Below are positions 20,040 through 29,280 of a DNA stretch of 41,999 nt, one piece after another. The stretch spans positions 1 through 41,999 of the forward strand of contig JBDKUT010000152.1 in NCBI GenBank assembly GCA_039679545.1. The letters run 5' to 3'. The notes under the pieces are model-generated. The model was not told where the DNA came from. It did not search any database and worked only from the letters and a program-made list of their open reading frames with translations. A program made the translations under genes and the position numbers. Numbering within the stretch: position 1 is the first letter of the stretch; each line of letters opens with the position of its first letter. The DNA is from Thermotogota bacterium. Lineage in GTDB: Bacteria > Bipolaricaulota > Bipolaricaulia > UBA7950 > UBA9294.

Positions 20040-20285
20040 GCCAAGGGTTCGTTGCCCGCACTCGGGCGCCGGTCTTTGCGTTCACGCGTCCCAACGAGCG
20101 CTGACTCAGGAGAAGATGAGCCCTCCTCGGTACAGGCGAACGCACGCTCGTCTAGAATGCCAACGGCAAACACGATAGACTCGGCCGACTGCGCCCCGCC
20201 CAATCCTGAGCTTCCGGCGAGCGCGCAGTTCCCGCAGTGCAAGCCGCCACGGGCGTCGGCGGTAGGTTGCATCTATTGGAGGGGT

Positions 20286-21434
20286 ATGTCGGTCCGTCAT
20301 TCCGGGAGTCTCTGGGGCTTCAGCACTAGACAACGGGTCGGAGCAGGAGGCGGCGGTTTTCCATGTGGGGGGGGATGTCCTCGCCGCCCGCGGCGGCGCT
20401 TTACGTTGCTTCTGGCAGGATTGCCCACCCTGGTCGTGTGCCTTGCCGCGTACGGGCCTGTGGTCCCAGCCTGGGACGAACTCGAGGTGGTGTCGCCCGA
20501 GGAGGTCGGCTGGTCGTTCGAGAGGCTTCAGGCCTTCGACGAGGCGGCCGCAAAACTCGGATACACCGCAGTCATGCTTGCCTACGACGGGAAGGTCTTC
20601 CACGAGTGGGGCAACTCGACGTACAACTACCGCTGCCACTCGATCCGCAAGCCTTTTCTTGGCGCCCTCTACGGCATCCACGTGGCTCGAGGAGAGATCG
20701 ACCTCGACGCGACGTTGAAAACCCTCGGGATCGACGACATCCCGCCACGCCTGACGGCCGAGGAGAAGACCGCGACGATCCGGCAGCTCCTCCAGTCTCG
20801 CTCGGGAATCTACCACGAGGCCGCCGCCGAGACGGAAGGGATGAGCGCAGCACGTCCCGCCCGCGGAAGCCATGCACCCGGCACGTTTTTCTACTACAAC
20901 AACTGGGACTTCAACGCTCTCGGCACGATCTTCAACCACCTGACCGGACTCGGCGTCTTCGAGGCGTTCGAGAAGGAGATCGCCATCCCCCTCGGCATGC
21001 AGGACTTCGCTCCCGCCAACTGCGAATACCAACTCGAGGCCGAGAAGTCGATGCACCCTGCGTACTCCTTCCGGATGAGCGCGCGAGACATGCTTCGCTT
21101 CGGGATCCTCTTCCAGCAGGGAGGAACGTGGCGCGGCCAGCAGATCATTCCCAAGGACTGGATCGAGGAAAGCACTCAGACGTACTCCATCGAGGACGCC
21201 GCGAGCGGGGTCGGCTACGGCTACTTGTGGAAGACGATCCCCGCCGGCTCTCCCGCCGCCCAGGCGCTCGGCGCGAGCGCCTACCTCCACACGGGGCTTG
21301 GCGTCCATTCGCTCGTTATCGTGCCGGAGTTGAAGCTTGTCGTTGTCATGCGCTTCGACACCGACGGCGCGTGGGAGGACCCGGGCGCGGAGGGCGACGC
21401 GCTGCCCTTCCTGCTCATGAGCGCCCGCCTCTAG
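20286..21434 (+). CDS. beta-lactamase-family serine hydrolase (exported); start ambiguous
   Basis: HSIRK (SxxK), LLQSRSG, YYNNWDFN, MSARDMLRFG, HTG motifs. In-frame ATG at 20286, or ATG 20363 if the G8 run at 20367-20374 were G7. Confidence 0.85.
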   Translation: MSVRHSGSLWGFSTRQRVGAGGGGFPCGGGCPRRPRRRFTLLLAGLPTLVVCLAAYGPVVPAWDELEVVSPEEVGWSFERLQAFDEAAAKLGYTAVMLAYDGKVFHEWGNSTYNYRCHSIRKPFLGALYGIHVARGEIDLDATLKTLGIDDIPPRLTAEEKTATIRQLLQSRSGIYHEAAAETEGMSAARPARGSHAPGTFFYYNNWDFNALGTIFNHLTGLGVFEAFEKEIAIPLGMQDFAPANCEYQLEAEKSMHPAYSFRMSARDMLRFGILFQQGGTWRGQQIIPKDWIEESTQTYSIEDAASGVGYGYLWKTIPAGSPAAQALGASAYLHTGLGVHSLVIVPELKLVVVMRFDTDGAWEDPGAEGDALPFLLMSARL

Positions 21435-21577
21435 GGCCGGCGCGCGACCCTTCCGAGCCCGGTCCAAACTTGAGATCTCGCCCATGGGCTGGGGGGAGGG
21501 CGTCGCTCCCGGGATCGACGAGGTCCTCAAACAAATGACCGGTCAAGCGACTGTTACGGCAGAAGGAGGCAGCCAAG

Positions 21578-22729
21578 ATGTGGAACGGCCGAGAGAACGA
21601 GCGCACCCGCTCATCCCATTCCGCGCTCCCAGGAATCGCCGCTGGTTGCGGCATCGTACTCGCCCTACTCGCAACGGTTTGGACGGTGCCTGTGGCGTCA
21701 CCGGTCTCGTCGAGCGTTCTCCGCGACCTGGGAAGCTACCTCGACGCGCTCGCGGCGGACGACCAGTTCTCGGGCGCGGTCCTCGTTGCACACGAAGGGA
21801 AGGCTGTGTTCGAGAAGGCCTACGGTCTGGCCGACCGGGCGAGTGGTGCGGCAAACACACTGGACACACGGTTCGAGATCGCGTCGATGGGCAAGATGTT
21901 CACCGGGGTAGCGATTCTCCAACTCGTCGAGCAAGGGACGCTCCGCCTGAATGCCCGATTGAGTGAGGTCCTTCCCGACTATCCGAACCAAGAGGTCGCC
22001 CGCCGCGTCACGATTCACCAGTTGCTCACCCACACCGCGGGCGTCGCCGACTGGATGGCGTGTCCGGACTACATGGACCTGCGGATGGCCCTTCGCAGCG
22101 TCGCCGATTACGTGCCTCTCTTCATCAATCAGCCGCTCGAGTTCACGCCGGGCAGCCAGTACAGCTACAGCAACTCCGGCTACATCCTCCTCGGGCTCGT
22201 GATCGAGAAGATCTGTGGCTGCGACTACTACGACTACGTGGGTGAGCACATTTTCGAACCATCCGGCATGAGAAACACAGGCTCGTTCACGCTCGACGCC
22301 CTTCCGCCGAACACGGCCCTGGGCTACACGACACTGAACGAAAACCTGGAGAGAACGACCGATTGGCGGGACAATACCTTTGTGCTGCCGGAGCGCGGAG
22401 CTTCGGACGGAGGTGGGTACTCCACCGTTCACGACCTTCTCGCGTTCAGCCAGGCCCTTCTTGCGAATCGCCTCCTGAGCCCAACCAACACGAAGCTCCT
22501 GTTGAAAGGGAAGGTTCAGACCGAGGATGAGACACGCTGGTACGCGTACGGTTTCCAAGACAAGACCCTGAACGGCCAGCGCGTCGTCGGTCACGGCGGC
22601 AGTTTCCCGGGCGTCAACAGCTTCCTCGACATGTACGTCGACACAGGGTACGTGGTCATCGTTCTGACCAACCGCGACAGCGGCGTCGTTGTCGTGCGCG
22701 ACTTCTTGGCTTCCCACCCGCTCTACTAG
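21578..22729 (+). CDS. beta-lactamase-family serine hydrolase (exported)
   Basis: AAGGAGG RBS; signal segment; IASMGK, LLTHTAG, YSYSNSGY and GHGG motifs. Confidence 0.92.
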   Translation: MWNGRENERTRSSHSALPGIAAGCGIVLALLATVWTVPVASPVSSSVLRDLGSYLDALAADDQFSGAVLVAHEGKAVFEKAYGLADRASGAANTLDTRFEIASMGKMFTGVAILQLVEQGTLRLNARLSEVLPDYPNQEVARRVTIHQLLTHTAGVADWMACPDYMDLRMALRSVADYVPLFINQPLEFTPGSQYSYSNSGYILLGLVIEKICGCDYYDYVGEHIFEPSGMRNTGSFTLDALPPNTALGYTTLNENLERTTDWRDNTFVLPERGASDGGGYSTVHDLLAFSQALLANRLLSPTNTKLLLKGKVQTEDETRWYAYGFQDKTLNGQRVVGHGGSFPGVNSFLDMYVDTGYVVIVLTNRDSGVVVVRDFLASHPLY

Positions 22730-23541: not shown

Positions 23542-24017
23542 TGACGCCACTTGTCCGGCCCTCTTCCGGGACGAGAGCCGCCGGCCCTTCGCCCTGAGCT
23601 CGGGCTCCTCTTCGCCGTATCTCGCAGAGGTACAACCAAGCGGCGTCGCCCGCCCAGATGAACTGATGCCACGTTCCGGTGATTGGGTGTCTCCGCGTTG
23701 TTGGCCCCCTCTCGGCTTGATTGGGTTGACAGGTGTAGCTATCCTGTCTGCTCTGAGGATGTATGCCCTTACCAGTTCTCGTCCTTGTTGGGCTTGTCGC
23801 TCATGCCATGTGCTCCCCTCCTAGCCGGCGTCCTCATGGCCCTTCCCCGGCCGTTGAGATGCGCCGACTGACCGCCGGGACGCAGCGCGTGACGGCGCAA
23901 CCCTGCGCAAGGAGGTGGTCGCCCGGGTTCAGGAGACGGCCGTCGCTGTTCTAGTCCGGCCATGCCGGTCCTGTGTCTGATCCCGATCCGGAAGGCGATC
24001 GGGCAAAGGAGGTGCAC

Positions 24018-24950
24018 GTGATTGTCACGCTTGACGTCTTCTCCGGGAGGCCCAACCCGCAGTGGCGGCTCTCCGAGGAAGAAACCGCGAGCCTTTTGCA
24101 CCGCATATCGGAGCGCTTCATCGCGCCCGAGGACGCCGCTGAAGGCGTGCTAGGCTACCGCGGCCTCATTGTCTCGGCGACGCGGGATGACCAACTACCC
24201 GAGGGAACTCCATCCTCTTTCCGTGTAGGGGGTCTGCTCCGCGCGGACCACAGAGCCCCGAAGGGAGCCGGCCGGCCGCTCACGGCAGACGAAACGGACG
24301 ACGCCGTTCGCTGGCTTCTCTCCACGGGCAGGAACGCGGTCGACCCCTCGCTCTTGGCGTACGTGGAAGACGTCGTGCAGTTGAGGAAGCAGGGGAAGGC
24401 GCCGGAGGAACCTCCGGGAAGCGAGGAAGTCAGGGAATTGGAGCCTGAGGAGGATGCCGACCGCGGGTTCCCACTACCTCCGTTCCCCGGCCCCTTCCCT
24501 CCCGTGTGCATCAAGATCAACCCTCCGTACAACCCGGCGTTCTGGAATGCCCCGAACGTGCGTCCGTACAACAACTGCTACAACTACGCCACAAACTACC
24601 GCAGCGACACCTTCGCCCAGCCCGGAAGGATCTCCGGCCACCTATACACCGCAATCGACTGCAGCCATGTGTCTGCGGCAGCCAAGTGGGACGGTCTGCG
24701 GAGCAACTGCGTCGCACGGAATGCGTATGTCGCCCTGGCTATCTGGCCGCCTGGGTGTGACTACCATTGGTATCGCCAGGACGCGTCTGGGTCCTGGAGC
24801 CACAAGCCCGGCGGCACGGCCGTGCAGAACAAGGACCAGAGCGGAAACCCGATCGACGGTACACAACGCACCCCACAGAACTGCAACCGAGGTCCGTACA
24901 CGGTGTTCTGCGGCTACCTCTGGGTTCCAGCCGGGACGCGAGTACGATAG
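24018..24950 (+). CDS. two-domain protein: SGRPNP N-domain plus a putative papain-like Cys/His catalytic domain
   Basis: AGGAGG RBS then GTG. N-domain LDVFSGRPNPQW...LGYRGLIV, acidic/Pro linker, C-domain NNCYNYA..AQPG..DYHWYRQD..G.WSHKPG. Confidence 0.75.
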   Translation: MIVTLDVFSGRPNPQWRLSEEETASLLHRISERFIAPEDAAEGVLGYRGLIVSATRDDQLPEGTPSSFRVGGLLRADHRAPKGAGRPLTADETDDAVRWLLSTGRNAVDPSLLAYVEDVVQLRKQGKAPEEPPGSEEVRELEPEEDADRGFPLPPFPGPFPPVCIKINPPYNPAFWNAPNVRPYNNCYNYATNYRSDTFAQPGRISGHLYTAIDCSHVSAAAKWDGLRSNCVARNAYVALAIWPPGCDYHWYRQDASGSWSHKPGGTAVQNKDQSGNPIDGTQRTPQNCNRGPYTVFCGYLWVPAGTRVR

Positions 24951-25003
24951 GAGCGAGCGAGGGCGGCTGGAGCGCTCGCCGGGCGAATGATGTGGGACCG
25001 ACC

Positions 25004-25348
25004 ATGATCGCGGAACTCGACGTGTACAGCGGCAGGCCGAATCCAAGGTGGTTGCTCACCGAGGACGAGTGTCGCGAGCTTGCGCTTCTTCTCCGCGATC
25101 TCCCTCCGGCCGAGGAGCGCCGCGCAGGAGTCGGGCTCGGCTACCGCGGCATCATTCTGGCCAACCCGCAGAAGGAGTGGGGACTTCCTCCGCACTTGCG
25201 TGTCTACGCGGGCGTCGTCTCCGCGGAGGCTGACGGCGCCCAGTTTCTTTCCGATGTTCGCGGTTGCGAACAGCGACTCCTGACGATGGCGGCCGCGCGC
25301 GGGTACGGTCCGCTTGTCGCAGCTATCGTGCAACAGAGAGAGGCTTGA
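25004..25348 (+). CDS. stand-alone SGRPNP-domain protein (paralog of the N-domain of the upstream gene)
   Basis: MIAELDVYSGRPNPRWLLTEDE...GLGYRGIIL...GLPPHLRVYAG aligns by eye to the upstream N-domain. C-terminal part of ORF 24767..25348. Confidence 0.75.
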   Translation: MIAELDVYSGRPNPRWLLTEDECRELALLLRDLPPAEERRAGVGLGYRGIILANPQKEWGLPPHLRVYAGVVSAEADGAQFLSDVRGCEQRLLTMAAARGYGPLVAAIVQQREA

Positions 25349-25706
25349 CCCGGGCGGGGCCGGAGACTCCGCGAGTCCCCGGCCCCCCGTGGCCGCGACT
25401 GCTGCTCGCTGTGGGCGCCCGGCGGCCTATGTCGCCCCCCGCAGTCCGAGGCGACGGCCGAACGAGGAAGACGACCGACCGCCGCCCTGTGCGGGTCGAT
25501 CGGTCGCCAGCTCGGCTTGCTGGAGCCGCGCGTGGCGAGGTTTGAGGAGCAGCTCGCCGGCAACCTGTTCTACGACGGTCGTCACGCGGCTCGCCCTGTT
25601 CGTGGCGACGACTCAGGGCAGATTCTTCGCACGGTCGGCGGTGCTTACTGGCCGAGCCACGCCCGATCGGCCGATGATGTCCGCGAGGGCGGCCACGGCC
25701 TGCGGA

Positions 25707-26888
25707 TCAGTCCTTCTGGTCGTCTGCCCTCCAGAACCCCACAGGCGCCGACCTCGTCTCGATCCTCGCCGTATACAAGGTCGAGCCTGCCGGCGTGTTG
25801 AGATCGAACGTGCGCCACGGGTTGAGGCTTGGAGGGCCGAACGAGACGTCGGCGGTTAGGGCATCGAGGTCGAGGACCAGCGAGTCCAGCGTCCCGAGGC
25901 CGTCGTCGTAGTACGACACGCAAAGCCCGTCGGGATACGGCGCGGCGAGGAGGTCGTGAGGGCGCGCGATGGGCTCCTCCGCCTTCTCGAGCCGCTTGCG
26001 GAGGAACTCACGCCGTCGGACCGACTGCCGCATCCGCAGCTCCGAGTACGCGTCCATCTCCGGCAGAACGTAGTGGTTGGTCGCGAACAGCGCTGGAGCC
26101 TCGCCCGACGCAAACTTCCGCACCGCCCTATCGGAGCACGCGATCTCGACGAGCGCGGCTTCCCCTGACTGATCCGCAAGGATGTAGTTTGAGTACCAGG
26201 CGATGGGCAGCCCTTCCAGCACATCGAGGGCCTCGGACACGGAGCGGCACCGGTCGAGCAGGATTCGCGACACGATCGAATACGGAAGCCCGGCGACCTC
26301 CACGCGCGACAAGGGCGAGCCGAGTGAACTTGTGAGTCCGAAACCGTGCTCGTTCAGTCCTGAGACCCGGCCAAAGACGGTGTCGGAAAAGCTGATGTGG
26401 CCAGCCTTCCCTTCGATGCGCGTCGTGCAGAGGCGGAGCTCCTGCATCTGTGGGTGGCAGTCGTAGTTCGCGCCAAGACGAACGTGACCCTCCGGACTCA
26501 GCCTTCTCGGCAGGTAGAAGTGGCTGCAGCCGCCTGACGTCGCGCGATCTGGCGAGACTCCCCCGCTCGACCAGAGAGTCGGAATGCGCTTCCCGTCTAC
26601 CATATGACACGCCCCGAGGAACGTCATCTTCTCGATCGGAATGCCAGTCGCATCCGACGCCCCGCGGATCTCCTCGGCGATGCCGGGACAGTGCTTCTCC
26701 ACAACCCGGAGCGCCGTCTTCCCCTCTTCCGGCGAGTAGTACTTCATGTCGGGGGGGCCGGCAGAGAACGCGCCCCGCCAGTCCGCGCCCGCCATCGCTC
26801 GGCCCTGCCATTGCCCCGCCTTGTAGGGCGAGCCCTCCATCACGTCATGCCGAAACGTCAGAACGCCCGGTCGTCCCAGAGTATTCAT
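25707..26888 (-). CDS. C45 family Ntn-hydrolase (acyl-CoA:6-APA acyltransferase-like)
   Basis: GSPYKAG..QG, EEIRGAS, GGCSHF autocleavage site, GANYD, GLNEHG, LLDRC.SV.EA, TNHY; GGAGG RBS. Confidence 0.88.
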   Translation of the reverse strand: MNTLGRPGVLTFRHDVMEGSPYKAGQWQGRAMAGADWRGAFSAGPPDMKYYSPEEGKTALRVVEKHCPGIAEEIRGASDATGIPIEKMTFLGACHMVDGKRIPTLWSSGGVSPDRATSGGCSHFYLPRRLSPEGHVRLGANYDCHPQMQELRLCTTRIEGKAGHISFSDTVFGRVSGLNEHGFGLTSSLGSPLSRVEVAGLPYSIVSRILLDRCRSVSEALDVLEGLPIAWYSNYILADQSGEAALVEIACSDRAVRKFASGEAPALFATNHYVLPEMDAYSELRMRQSVRRREFLRKRLEKAEEPIARPHDLLAAPYPDGLCVSYYDDGLGTLDSLVLDLDALTADVSFGPPSLNPWRTFDLNTPAGSTLYTARIETRSAPVGFWRADDQKD

Positions 26889-27103
26889 GCGTCTTCCTCC
26901 TCTCTCATTCGCCAGCCGATGTCGTCGGCCGAGGGCATCGTTCCGCTTCCCCCCCGTGGTCAACGCGCGTCAGAGGACAAGGCGGTGTTTAGGCTGTGAA
27001 GAGACATTCATCACCAGAGCCGAGCTCAGAGACCACAGCGTTCCGAGCGGTCAGCAACGACCGCACGGCGGCGACCCGTGGATTTGCGCCCACCCGTCGG
27101 TTC

Positions 27104-27574
27104 CTAGGGAGCGACCTCCAGGTACAGGTCAAAGACCCACTTCGCCCGGTCGGACTCTCCAGGGCTCAGCGGCTCTTCGAGCCAGCGGCCGCCACGGGCT
27201 GGACGCTTGTACGGACTCTCCTCGACCCAGGCGGAGAGTGCACGCCACCGCTCGCCGATGTGCCCGAGGCCGACGCACCGCATCACCGTATACTTGCCGG
27301 CCGCGACGCGCTTGATCTCAATCGGCGGCGACTCCTCGACATCGAGGCCGACGACGAGCCAGATCTCGTAGCCGTAGTTTGGGCTTCCCGGAGAAGGGTC
27401 CGGGTTGTTGAATCCGAAAGTCCGGTAGTCGGGACCGCCGACGCGTAGCCCGATGCTCTCTGCGAAACGCACGATCTTCCCGACCGCCTCGTCTTCCGGA
27501 TGCCGTCCATAGCCAAGCGCGCTTGCGACGCGCATCGGGGGCAGATCGATGATTCGAACGTCGGTCAATGGCAT
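27104..27574 (-). CDS. GyrI-like small-molecule-binding protein
   Basis: VRIIDLPPMRVAS...FGFNNPDPS...YGYEIW...GKY...W..L..W...WLEE...DLYL. Confidence 0.85.
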   Translation of the reverse strand: MPLTDVRIIDLPPMRVASALGYGRHPEDEAVGKIVRFAESIGLRVGGPDYRTFGFNNPDPSPGSPNYGYEIWLVVGLDVEESPPIEIKRVAAGKYTVMRCVGLGHIGERWRALSAWVEESPYKRPARGGRWLEEPLSPGESDRAKWVFDLYLEVAP

Positions 27575-27648
27575 TCTCGCTCCTCCTCCGACACGGAGCC
27601 GCGGTGACTCACTCGCCCCCTGCGGCTCCGCGCGTGTCCGCTTTCAGA

Positions 27649-28206
27649 CTACAGCTTCAACCGCTCTTCCTGCGGCAGCACATTCTCGTACTCCACGGAG
27701 CGGAACCACGTGTGCGCGGGCTTCCACGTCTCCAAGTACGTGAACCCCATTCGCTCGTAGAAGTGACGGTTCTTCGCGTGGAACTCCGGCGTGCCGAGAC
27801 GCCATCGCCTGACGTTCGGGTGAAGCCGGAAGATCTGGCGCATCGCCTCCTCGCCGATACCCCGGTCTTGATACATCGGCTCGATGAAGATCCGCCAGAA
27901 GTTCTCCATGTGGTACTTCTCCGCGTCCGCGGCGACGAGCACTCCTCCCACGATGTAGTCGCCGAGCAGGATCTTGTAGTACACGCACTCCGGAGACTGG
28001 ATCCACTCGGCGGTCTGCTTCACGTCCATGATGTCGGGAGGCCCGAGCGGTGGATCCTGAAGCTCGCGCAGCCTCTTCTGGTCTTCCGCCGACGCGTGGT
28101 CTAGCTCCGTCAGAAACGCTCGCCCCTGGATGATCGCAAGGCGTCCGGCATCCTCGGTCTTCGCTAGTTCCAGGCGTACAGGACGCTTCTCAACCCTTTT
28201 CGTCAT
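27649..28206 (-). CDS. GNAT N-acetyltransferase
   Basis: IFIEPMYQDRGIG (motif A); LGTP....NRHFYERMGF; AGGAGG RBS. Confidence 0.88.
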   Translation of the reverse strand: MTKRVEKRPVRLELAKTEDAGRLAIIQGRAFLTELDHASAEDQKRLRELQDPPLGPPDIMDVKQTAEWIQSPECVYYKILLGDYIVGGVLVAADAEKYHMENFWRIFIEPMYQDRGIGEEAMRQIFRLHPNVRRWRLGTPEFHAKNRHFYERMGFTYLETWKPAHTWFRSVEYENVLPQEERLKL

Positions 28207-28246
28207 CTGGCCTCCTCTGGTTGTCGAATCAGTGTGGCTGCCATTC

Positions 28247-28274
28247 ATGACATCTCGTGTCATCTTTGTACAAT
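28247..28274. promoter_or_regulatory. palindromic operator overlapping the promoter of the WYL gene
   Basis: ATGACA-TCTCG-TGTCAT (28247-28263), then TACAAT (28269-28274), in the short divergent intergenic region. Confidence 0.6.
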
Positions 28275-28296
28275 GTCGTGCCCAAGGAGGCATGCC

Positions 28297-29280
28297 GTGC
28301 GAGCCGATCGATTGCTGTCGATTCTTTTCTTTCTTCAGACGCGCGGCCGATCGACGACCGACCGCCTAGCGGAGGAGTTCGAGGTATCCCAACGCACGAT
28401 CCTTCGCGACCTCTATGCGCTCCGCGTTGCCGGGTTCCCCGTGTACACCGATCGCGGGCCGCACGGGGGCTGCTATCTCCACGACGAGTACCGCAACACG
28501 CTGACCCAACTCACGAGCGATGAGATCGCCACTCTATTCCTGTCGAGCATCCACAAGCCGCTCGAGGATCTGGGGCTCTCCAACCAGCTCCGCGCCGCAC
28601 GCCTGAAGCTCACCGCGGCGCTGCCGGAGTCGCAACGGGCGGCCATGAGTCGTCTGGGGCAGCGCATCGTGATCGACTCCCTCCCCTGGACGAAGCGCGC
28701 CCGCCCCGTCGGGTTCCTGTCCCTGCTCCATCAGGCGGCGATGGAGGATCGTTGGGTCCGTGTGGCCTTCGTCAGACGATTCGACGTGACAACTCAGCGA
28801 CGAGTCGCCCCCTACGGTCTCGTGGCGAAGGCCGGTGTGTGGTACCTCGTCTGGGCCGGAGAGGATGGCCACGTGCGCATCGACGCTGTGTCCGACATTC
28901 ACAAGGCGACGGCTGAGGACGAACGCTTCGAGAGACCGAGTGGCTTCGCCCTTGACTGTTTCTGGCAGACGTGGCGGGAGGAACAGGAAGCGTCCCGGCC
29001 GGGGTTCGACGTCCGCCTCCGCGTGCGCAAGGATGCTCTGCGATACGTGCAGGACGCGCTTGGTGAGCGCCGCGGGGTCTTCCCTCTGCCGGCAACAGAG
29101 ACCGACGAGTGGGTTGAAATCGGCGCACGCTTCTCCTACTTCGAAGAAGCGCGGCGGAACTTGCTGGCGTTCGGGGGCGCTGTCGAGGTCCTGCGGCCCC
29201 AGGCCCTACGCGTCTCGATGGCTGACTTCGCAGGCCAGATCGCGCGGCGCTATCGGAGCGTCAATCCGCAAGACGACTAG
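28297..29280 (+). CDS. YafY-like HTH-WYL-WCX transcriptional regulator
   Basis: RADRLLSIL...LAEEFEVSQRTILRDL, G..GG.YL, RRVAPYGLV..AGVWYLV, C-terminal G..VEVL.P..LR; AAGGAGG RBS then GTG. Confidence 0.93.
   Translation: MRADRLLSILFFLQTRGRSTTDRLAEEFEVSQRTILRDLYALRVAGFPVYTDRGPHGGCYLHDEYRNTLTQLTSDEIATLFLSSIHKPLEDLGLSNQLRAARLKLTAALPESQRAAMSRLGQRIVIDSLPWTKRARPVGFLSLLHQAAMEDRWVRVAFVRRFDVTTQRRVAPYGLVAKAGVWYLVWAGEDGHVRIDAVSDIHKATAEDERFERPSGFALDCFWQTWREEQEASRPGFDVRLRVRKDALRYVQDALGERRGVFPLPATETDEWVEIGARFSYFEEARRNLLAFGGAVEVLRPQALRVSMADFAGQIARRYRSVNPQDD

Follow-up and report, generated by a model that had tools for sequence, protein, structure and literature searches.

SpeB is a secreted protein and Spi a cytoplasmic one. 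Spi is described as a propeptide analogue that inhibits SpeB and is encoded by an adjacent, co-transcribed gene (PMC2873492). Staphostatin binds the staphopain cleft in a substrate-like manner in which a glycine is critical (PMC7863939). The immunity proteins of T6SS amidases go to the compartment of the effector, and in the Tae/Tai and Ssp/Rap pairs a leaderless NlpC/P60-type enzyme is blocked at its active site by an exported partner (PMC3852654). The two-gene protealysin/emfourin operon pairs the gene of an intracellular protease with that of a small inhibitor targeting its active site, and a role in interbacterial competition has been proposed (PMC9505478). The immunity domain Imm35, sometimes fused to Tox-PL1, for which an Asn-Cys motif is listed, has been called a possible protease inhibitor (PMC3482391), and Cpe1 is a papain-like interbacterial protease with the immunity protein Cpi1 (PMC12136450).

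The window, by which we mean the whole stretch of 41,999 nucleotides analysed, carries a two-gene module that is real, conserved and unannotated, a SpeB/Spi-like design built from unrelated families. Its features are:

24007-24012, + strand: AGGAGG ribosome-binding site of gene 1, read from the sequence, 5 nt 5' of the GTG
24018-24950, + strand: gene 1, 310 aa, GTG start; leaderless, predicted to be a cysteine enzyme; bears a tethered SGRPNP domain
24018-24389, + strand: SGRPNP domain of gene 1 (residues 1-124), predicted in-cis active-site plug
24042-24050, + strand: plug loop S9-G10-R11 of gene 1; the second loop is L45-G46-Y47-R48
24390-24500, + strand: acidic, Pro-rich disordered linker (residues 125-161), candidate activation site
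24501-24947, + strand: catalytic domain (residues 162-310), with invariant residues and weak fold matches
24576-24578, 24765-24767 and 24801-24803, + strand: catalytic-domain codons of Cys187, His250 and His262, to which Asp248 is added
25004-25348, + strand: gene 2, 114 aa, free SGRPNP domain, predicted inhibitor, leaderless here
25028-25036, + strand: S9-G10-R11 of gene 2
25349-25392, + strand: GC-rich hairpin directly 3' of gene 2, no U-tract

Like SpeB/Spi, the module joins the gene of a predicted papain-fold zymogen to a neighbouring gene whose product is homologous to the N-terminal part of that enzyme, but no C10 or Spi Pfam match was found in 117 enzymes and 70 free copies of the domain, the enzyme is leaderless and its partner often predicted to be exported, and the domain also occurs fused C-terminally. 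With staphopain and staphostatin (C47/I57) it shares an adjacent gene, here for a putative inhibitor, and its invariant Gly10 is modelled on Cys187; staphostatin, however, is a beta-barrel unrelated to a propeptide, whereas the SGRPNP domain is predicted to be alpha+beta and is homologous to part of the enzyme. The leaderless, weakly NlpC/P60-like enzyme with a partner that is in many loci predicted to be exported recalls Tae/Tai and Ssp/Rap, although no T6SS link was found and the partner here copies a domain of the enzyme itself and is often leaderless. The pairing of a putative protease gene with that of a small putative inhibitor resembles protealysin/emfourin, but protealysin is a metalloprotease and the SGRPNP domain showed no Pfam similarity to emfourin and, against 4 emfourin sequences, no profile-profile similarity. 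Comparison with Tox-PL1 and Imm35 gave no Pfam match, and Cpe1/Cpi1 is set apart by the Cys-His-Asp/Asn triad and the T6SS and CDI carriers of Cpe1 and by Cpi1 leaving the active site unblocked. By profile the module is a member of none of the SpeB/Spi, staphostatin, T6SS amidase, emfourin, Tox-PL1/Imm35 or Cpe1/Cpi1 families. The accessible text of PMC10318531 and PMC12994826 holds nothing that matches its family, and a literature search, outside which lay subscription journals and supplementary tables, found no description of it. The first-pass annotation knew of no description of the pair; the design has a precedent in SpeB/Spi (PMC2873492).

Organisation and distribution of the gene pair

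Gene 1 and gene 2 are co-oriented with a gap of 53 nt, and the GTG of gene 1 lines up with the starts of its homologues. The intergenic stretch is bridged gap-free by contigs of two other runs, one of them from a second study, so the missing leader in the window is not an artefact of assembly. A six-codon ORF (24987-25007) in the frame of gene 1 terminates in an ATGA that it shares with the gene 2 start and could couple translation. The hairpin 3' of gene 2 (-33.1 kcal/mol, z -2.48, with 3 of 200 shuffles equally stable) was not flagged by terminator calling and is a possible transcript end. No sigma-70 site was found, nor, on the plus strand 5' of gene 1, a sigma-54 site; the sigma-54 pattern used is present in only 2 of 80 upstream regions. 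The neighbours in the window tested against Pfam have no relation to the module: they encode a methyltransferase, a beta-lactamase-fold hydrolase, an AAT acyltransferase, a GyrI-like protein and a GNAT. Two tandem beta-lactamase-fold ORFs lie upstream (20052-22729, the Pfam test covering the second), and the minus-strand run downstream (25707-29280) consists of the AAT acyltransferase, GyrI-like and GNAT genes and then a regulator that we take to be WYL-like. A profile search finds the module once in this genome, and none of 40 related genomes (69-99% complete) yielded it; it is therefore probably a sporadic cassette, horizontally acquired.

A scan of 185,579 species genomes returned 158 relatives, of which the best 80, picked by likeness to full-length gene 1, were analysed; eight of these loci are Microcoleus-like and not independent. 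A free SGRPNP gene adjoins the enzyme in 72 of the 80 (73 counting one weak copy), a recurrence that excludes chance pairing and agrees with the co-occurrence of solo copies and enzyme genes that the first-pass annotation proposed to check. The free gene is downstream on the same strand in 66 of the 72 (L068 placed there by inspection), upstream in 4 and convergent in 2, both archaeal. Among the eight loci without a clear adjacent copy, L034 has the weak copy, L079 and L080 are on contigs ending 21 and 218 nt past the gene, and L054 and L056 have no free copy beside the enzyme. Whole-genome searches of five of the eight found another complete module in three and a leader-bearing copy ~13 kb away in a fourth, the fifth being the genome of L034. 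In the Streptoalloteichus locus L022 (4956-8713) two full-length enzymes stand in tandem without a free copy, and the next ORF, of 683 aa, has no Pfam match. In L023 (1442-1684) and L028 (5872-6087) the full copy is replaced by an ORF of ~66-75 aa after the enzyme, with a twin-arginine-like leader, that retains no more of the domain than its C-terminal LExWLL helices and is missing the plug loop.

In the reverse search with the free-copy profile, the best 80 of 449 metagenome matches comprise 59 in which the catalytic domain adjoins the free copy, one lone fused enzyme, and 20 in which no enzyme is visible, many of the latter close to contig ends. At least 9 of the 59 have short enzymes without the fused domain and a separate domain gene beside them. 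Among the best 150 representatives of the catalytic domain, 87 have the SGRPNP domain and 63 (some of them fragments) do not; 8 of the 150 carry it fused behind the catalytic domain, six of these with hydrophobic N-termini, as have 20 of the 63 without it. Three arrangements relative to the enzyme are found, N-terminal, C-terminal, and as a separate gene beside short enzymes. The relatives span about a dozen phyla, and the pair is kept in two Nitrososphaerales archaea (L032, L075).

Within 5 kb, 24 of the 80 loci encode a subtilase (17), a caspase (5), a C1A peptidase with chagasin (4) or a protein-glutamine glutaminase (4), some more than one; another tally finds the glutaminase genes at 5 loci, and peptidases outnumber deamidases among the neighbours. 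A hydrophobic leader is absent in all 22 such neighbour proteins inspected. No T6SS family was found among 150 of 152 picked flanking ORFs, and no Hcp or sheath gene was found in this genome (93.55% complete), a VgrG-type match being sub-threshold only. Its caspase and C1A/chagasin homologues are on other contigs, and a search of it for the neighbouring type of subtilase gave no match. The subtilases of L006 (6672-8030) and 17 other loci form a distinct leaderless S8 subfamily, 37-70% identical across phyla, followed in several loci by a conserved ORF of ~90-100 aa (L006, 8060-8365). A leaderless family of 640-770 aa occurs near the module in 6 loci (L081, 4551-6851; L007, L011, L057, L058 and L155), and a Pfam scan of one member gave no match.

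The catalytic and SGRPNP domains

Gene 1 has 2434 homologues at E<=0.001, and the profile of its C-domain matches 4248 clusters at 50% identity (E<=0.001) in bacteria, some archaea and giant-virus contigs. Its AlphaFold model (pLDDT 87.5, pTM 0.81) is confident outside the linker, where residues 133-157 fall below pLDDT 50; the linkers of homologues are 14-45 aa long and Ala/Glu/Pro-rich, with no cleavage motif conserved across them. The motifs quoted in the first-pass annotation are all present, as are the seven C-domain cysteines it counted (164, 187, 215, 231, 247, 289 and 298). In all 131 aligned catalytic domains (130 from the loci and that of the window, 95 after thinning to <88% identity) the catalytic residues C187, H250, H262, D248, N186, Q201 and K263 are invariant, as are W176, N177, Y188, P202, G203, C215, D225, W260, G265, D273, P286, Y294 and C298, and the catalytic residues are conserved in 19-20 of 20 secreted relatives. 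The canonical Cys-then-His order with a third polar residue is present (C187, H250, H262; 131/131). NlpC/P60 enzymes have a His-His spacing of 12 residues, and on spacing the third catalytic residue is probably His262, in place of the Asp or Gln originally suggested.

A wide VIA structure search aligned the C-domain (residues 160-306) in 41 of 50 rows, by title nearly all NlpC/P60, CHAP, Josephin/USP, AvrPphB or Tgl-type, families that we in part assume to be papain-fold Cys/His enzymes; the best match has Z 4.7, rmsd 4.5 and 110 aligned residues, and every fold scores Z <5. Foldseek returned nothing at E<=0.001 for the gene 1 model, and there were zero matches for gene 1 in Pfam, NCBIfam, PHROGs, PADLOC or PDB sequences. 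Across 117 members neither the PF00877 (NlpC/P60) nor the CHAP (PF05257) profile matched at E<=0.1, nor did any deamidase or transglutaminase Pfam family. In the Atlas the fold falls in an RHS-associated cluster (TM 0.77; RHS in 38% of cluster members). A DUF7689 label there (score 0.90, 11% of a cluster) was dropped, the Pfam scan lending it no support. The domain is a member of no profiled family, and we read it, from its models, as a divergent papain-fold family with a Cys187-His250 dyad, weakly NlpC/P60-CHAP-like, in agreement with the papain-like Cys/His enzyme first proposed. Elsewhere the catalytic domain occurs without SGRPNP on viral contigs (L161, L163, L166 and L167, two labelled GVMAG), at the C-terminus of a secreted protein that presumably has trypsin-like motifs (L162/L165), and fused behind other modules in P0284 and P0268, in one case a C70 AvrRpt2-like peptidase (Pfam) and in the other an N-terminal region that we take to be peptidoglycan-binding-like.

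Gene 2 is, as the first-pass annotation held, a free copy of the N-domain of gene 1, being 43% identical to its residues 1-70 (30/70, E 3e-12), and the free-copy profile covers residues 2-113 of gene 1 (E 8e-20); a single-sequence homologue search with gene 2 found itself only. In the fused domain S9, G10, N13, P14, L45 and G46 are invariant in 117/117 homologues; Gly10 is likewise invariant in 70/70 free copies, and Ser9 is near-invariant there (69/70). The gene 2 model (pLDDT 91.5) combines a mixed sheet and a pair of long helices. VIA matches the free domain best to the Clostridium lipoprotein 4r7r (Z 7.9, rmsd 2.4, 87 aligned) and next to 2mct (Z 5.5); we treat this as a lead only, and the domain appears to have no clear solved relative. 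For gene 2 Foldseek gave no match at E<=0.001, and Pfam (70 free copies), NCBIfam, PHROGs, PADLOC and PDB sequences gave zero. Kinship with emfourin was considered and found no support: the hhalign probability was 0.7%, against only 4 emfourin sequences, and emfourin (PF20242) was absent from the Pfam results of the 70 free copies and from the VIA listing of the free domain.

A quick tree of 155 domains places 81 fused and 74 free domains on opposite sides of one branch (SH-aLRT 91), so that the free copy seems to be a specialised paralogue of long standing. It is no closer to the N-domain of its own enzyme than to others, and the median cognate rank of 40 of 81 rules out a recent local duplication. 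Distance correlations over 41 loci (0.33 for the catalytic domain against the free copy, 0.65 against the N-domain) reflect shared descent, and we therefore take no evidence of co-evolution from them. The domain is also found in longer, mostly exported proteins without the enzyme (23/120). Among P0125-P0128, P0130, P0139 and P0141 it is fused in exported proteins to another small domain, which we presume to resemble a serine-protease pro-region, and it is part of anti-sigma-like membrane proteins, one of which also has a META domain. A link to a mollusc shell-matrix protein is conceivable, but the literature search brought nothing in its favour.

Location of the partner and the predicted plug

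Neither window gene has an upstream hydrophobic leader, so the absence of signal peptides asserted by the first-pass annotation holds for both, but it does not extend to the family: 29 of 73 free copies (72 loci and the window) have an in-frame upstream hydrophobic leader with a start codon and are predicted to be exported, mostly as lipoprotein-like forms, 23 of them, including the closest relatives L001, L003 and L004, having a Cys after the hydrophobic stretch. These calls come from a hydrophobicity heuristic and not from SignalP; the same test flagged 1/82 enzymes and 1/146 other-frame controls. The remaining 44/73 have no detected leader, those of the window and of streptomycetes among them. 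In the metagenomes leaders were flagged, on hydrophobicity only, in 30/59 copies beside an enzyme and 13/20 orphans. Of the 29 copies with a leader, 26 retain an ATG where the domain begins and 17 have a plausible ribosome-binding site there, which hints at long and short forms. In Gemmatimonadota modules (L173/L178, L174) the free copies are of the lipoprotein type, and in one of these modules a single enzyme is followed by two of them in tandem.

Co-folding of gene 2 with enzyme residues 160-310 gave an ipSAE of 0.92 in three runs, with 0.01 for the best control; the 0.92 mark is reached by 116/157 solved and 2/215 mismatched pairs, a rough calibration only, in which own alignments were used. 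At least 98% of contacts are common to the three runs, and the partner has pLDDT >=87. The modelled contacts join partner residues 7-12 and 43-48 to enzyme residues 186-188, 199, 201, 247-251, 262-265 and 291-294. Ser9 and Gly10 would lie on Cys187 and His250, both of which contact Ser9, and Arg11 on the invariant Asp248, an arrangement that favours the earlier proposal of the GRPNP loop as an active-site plug; the fold matches themselves are weak (Z<=4.7). Conservation common to the fused and the free copies lies mainly in these two contact loops. The high score may echo covariation of the fused N- and C-domains together with the own alignments, and therefore shows likeness and not the binding of gene 2, and in the model the docked loop would suit a substrate as well as an inhibitor. 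The full-length pTM of 0.81 despite the disordered linker would fit a docked N-domain.

Mechanism, alternatives and implications

We consider it probable that gene 1 encodes an autoinhibited leaderless cysteine protease of divergent papain (NlpC/P60-like) fold, with gene 2 as its dedicated inhibitor, and to this extent the interpretation of the first-pass annotation is supported. The prediction is that its own SGRPNP domain keeps the enzyme inactive, with the Ser9-Gly10-Arg11 loop across Cys187/His250, Arg11 on Asp248 and the Leu-Gly-Tyr-Arg loop as a brace, and the invariant glycine may, like that of staphostatin, resist cleavage. The enzyme would be armed when the tethered domain is cut off at the disordered linker or lost, possibly through the leaderless subtilases or caspases whose genes neighbour many of the related modules, and the free copy would then catch the armed enzyme, in the cytoplasm here and in the cell envelope in lineages with a lipoprotein-like leader. 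Should the plug bind as tightly in trans, cutting the linker might not be enough to switch the enzyme on. A prodomain, as originally proposed, describes the N-terminal position in gene 1 but not the C-terminal fusions or the domains encoded beside enzymes that lack one. A protein is the likely substrate, since the pair is retained in archaea and in lineages whose partners are confined to the cytoplasm.

The SGRPNP domain could instead be a substrate, acceptor or folding partner, the enzyme cutting, acylating or cross-linking the Ser-Gly-Arg loop or requiring the domain in order to fold. Ser9 and Gly10 are modelled on the catalytic pair, as they would be in a substrate, Ser9 is near-invariant (69/70 free, 117/117 fused), the transglutaminase 7c9j is among the weak fold matches, and the domain resides in exported multidomain proteins without the enzyme (23/120). 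We nevertheless think this unlikely: fusion at either end or a free state suits a tethered blocker, exported copies and a leaderless enzyme are in different compartments at synthesis, and the domain is not needed for folding, since many secreted catalytic domains are without it (20/63 with a hydrophobic N-terminus). A peptidoglycan-hydrolase toxin with an immunity protein of the Tae/Tai or Ssp/Rap type, the effector acting outside the membrane, would account for top fold matches that are mostly cell-wall hydrolases, for the RHS-associated Atlas cluster (TM 0.77, RHS 38%), and for leaders on 29/73 partners, 23 with a Cys, against 1/146 control frames and 1/82 enzymes, given that immunity proteins sit where the effector acts (PMC3852654). 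Against such a toxin, the 44/73 leaderless partners could not guard the wall, neither PF00877 nor CHAP matches, and no Hcp or sheath gene was found in the 93.55% complete genome and no T6SS family among the 150 flanking ORFs. The pair is moreover present in two Nitrososphaerales archaea and the domain on giant-virus contigs, and neither these archaea nor giant viruses are known to have peptidoglycan; we accordingly give a wall-directed toxin little credence.

The plug and inhibitor logic could also serve a protein deamidase or transglutaminase. The Asn-Cys motif is found in Tox-PL1 too (PMC3482391), papain folds support both reactions (PMC10318531), and protein-glutamine glutaminase genes lie within 5 kb at 5 loci, but the docked loop is without Gln, no deamidase or transglutaminase Pfam family matches in 117 members, and peptidases exceed deamidases among the neighbours, all of which makes such an activity improbable. 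The inhibited protease remains our preferred reading.

A bolder extension of the protease reading, which we regard as rather doubtful, is that of an interbacterial protease weapon independent of any secretion system, in which islands of leaderless proteases cut the linker and the inhibitor doubles as an immunity protein. If true, subtilase, caspase, C1A and protein glutaminase islands would arm the enzyme, and one new inhibitor fold would be both a safety catch at either end and a two-compartment immunity protein. One gene with two starts would give lipoprotein and cytoplasmic forms (26/29 keep the domain-start ATG), and orphan exported copies would shield non-producers.

The autoinhibited protease and its inhibitor, if confirmed, would define an unannotated and widespread family of cysteine enzymes and a new family of inhibitors without a clear counterpart among solved folds, and the mechanism proposed is directly testable at the level of single residues. 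Attention would also be drawn to islands of leaderless proteases, as yet unexplored, in environmental bacteria. That the inhibitor is tethered to one end or the other of the enzyme, stands free or is exported would then be a natural experiment in how propeptides become stand-alone inhibitors or immunity proteins.
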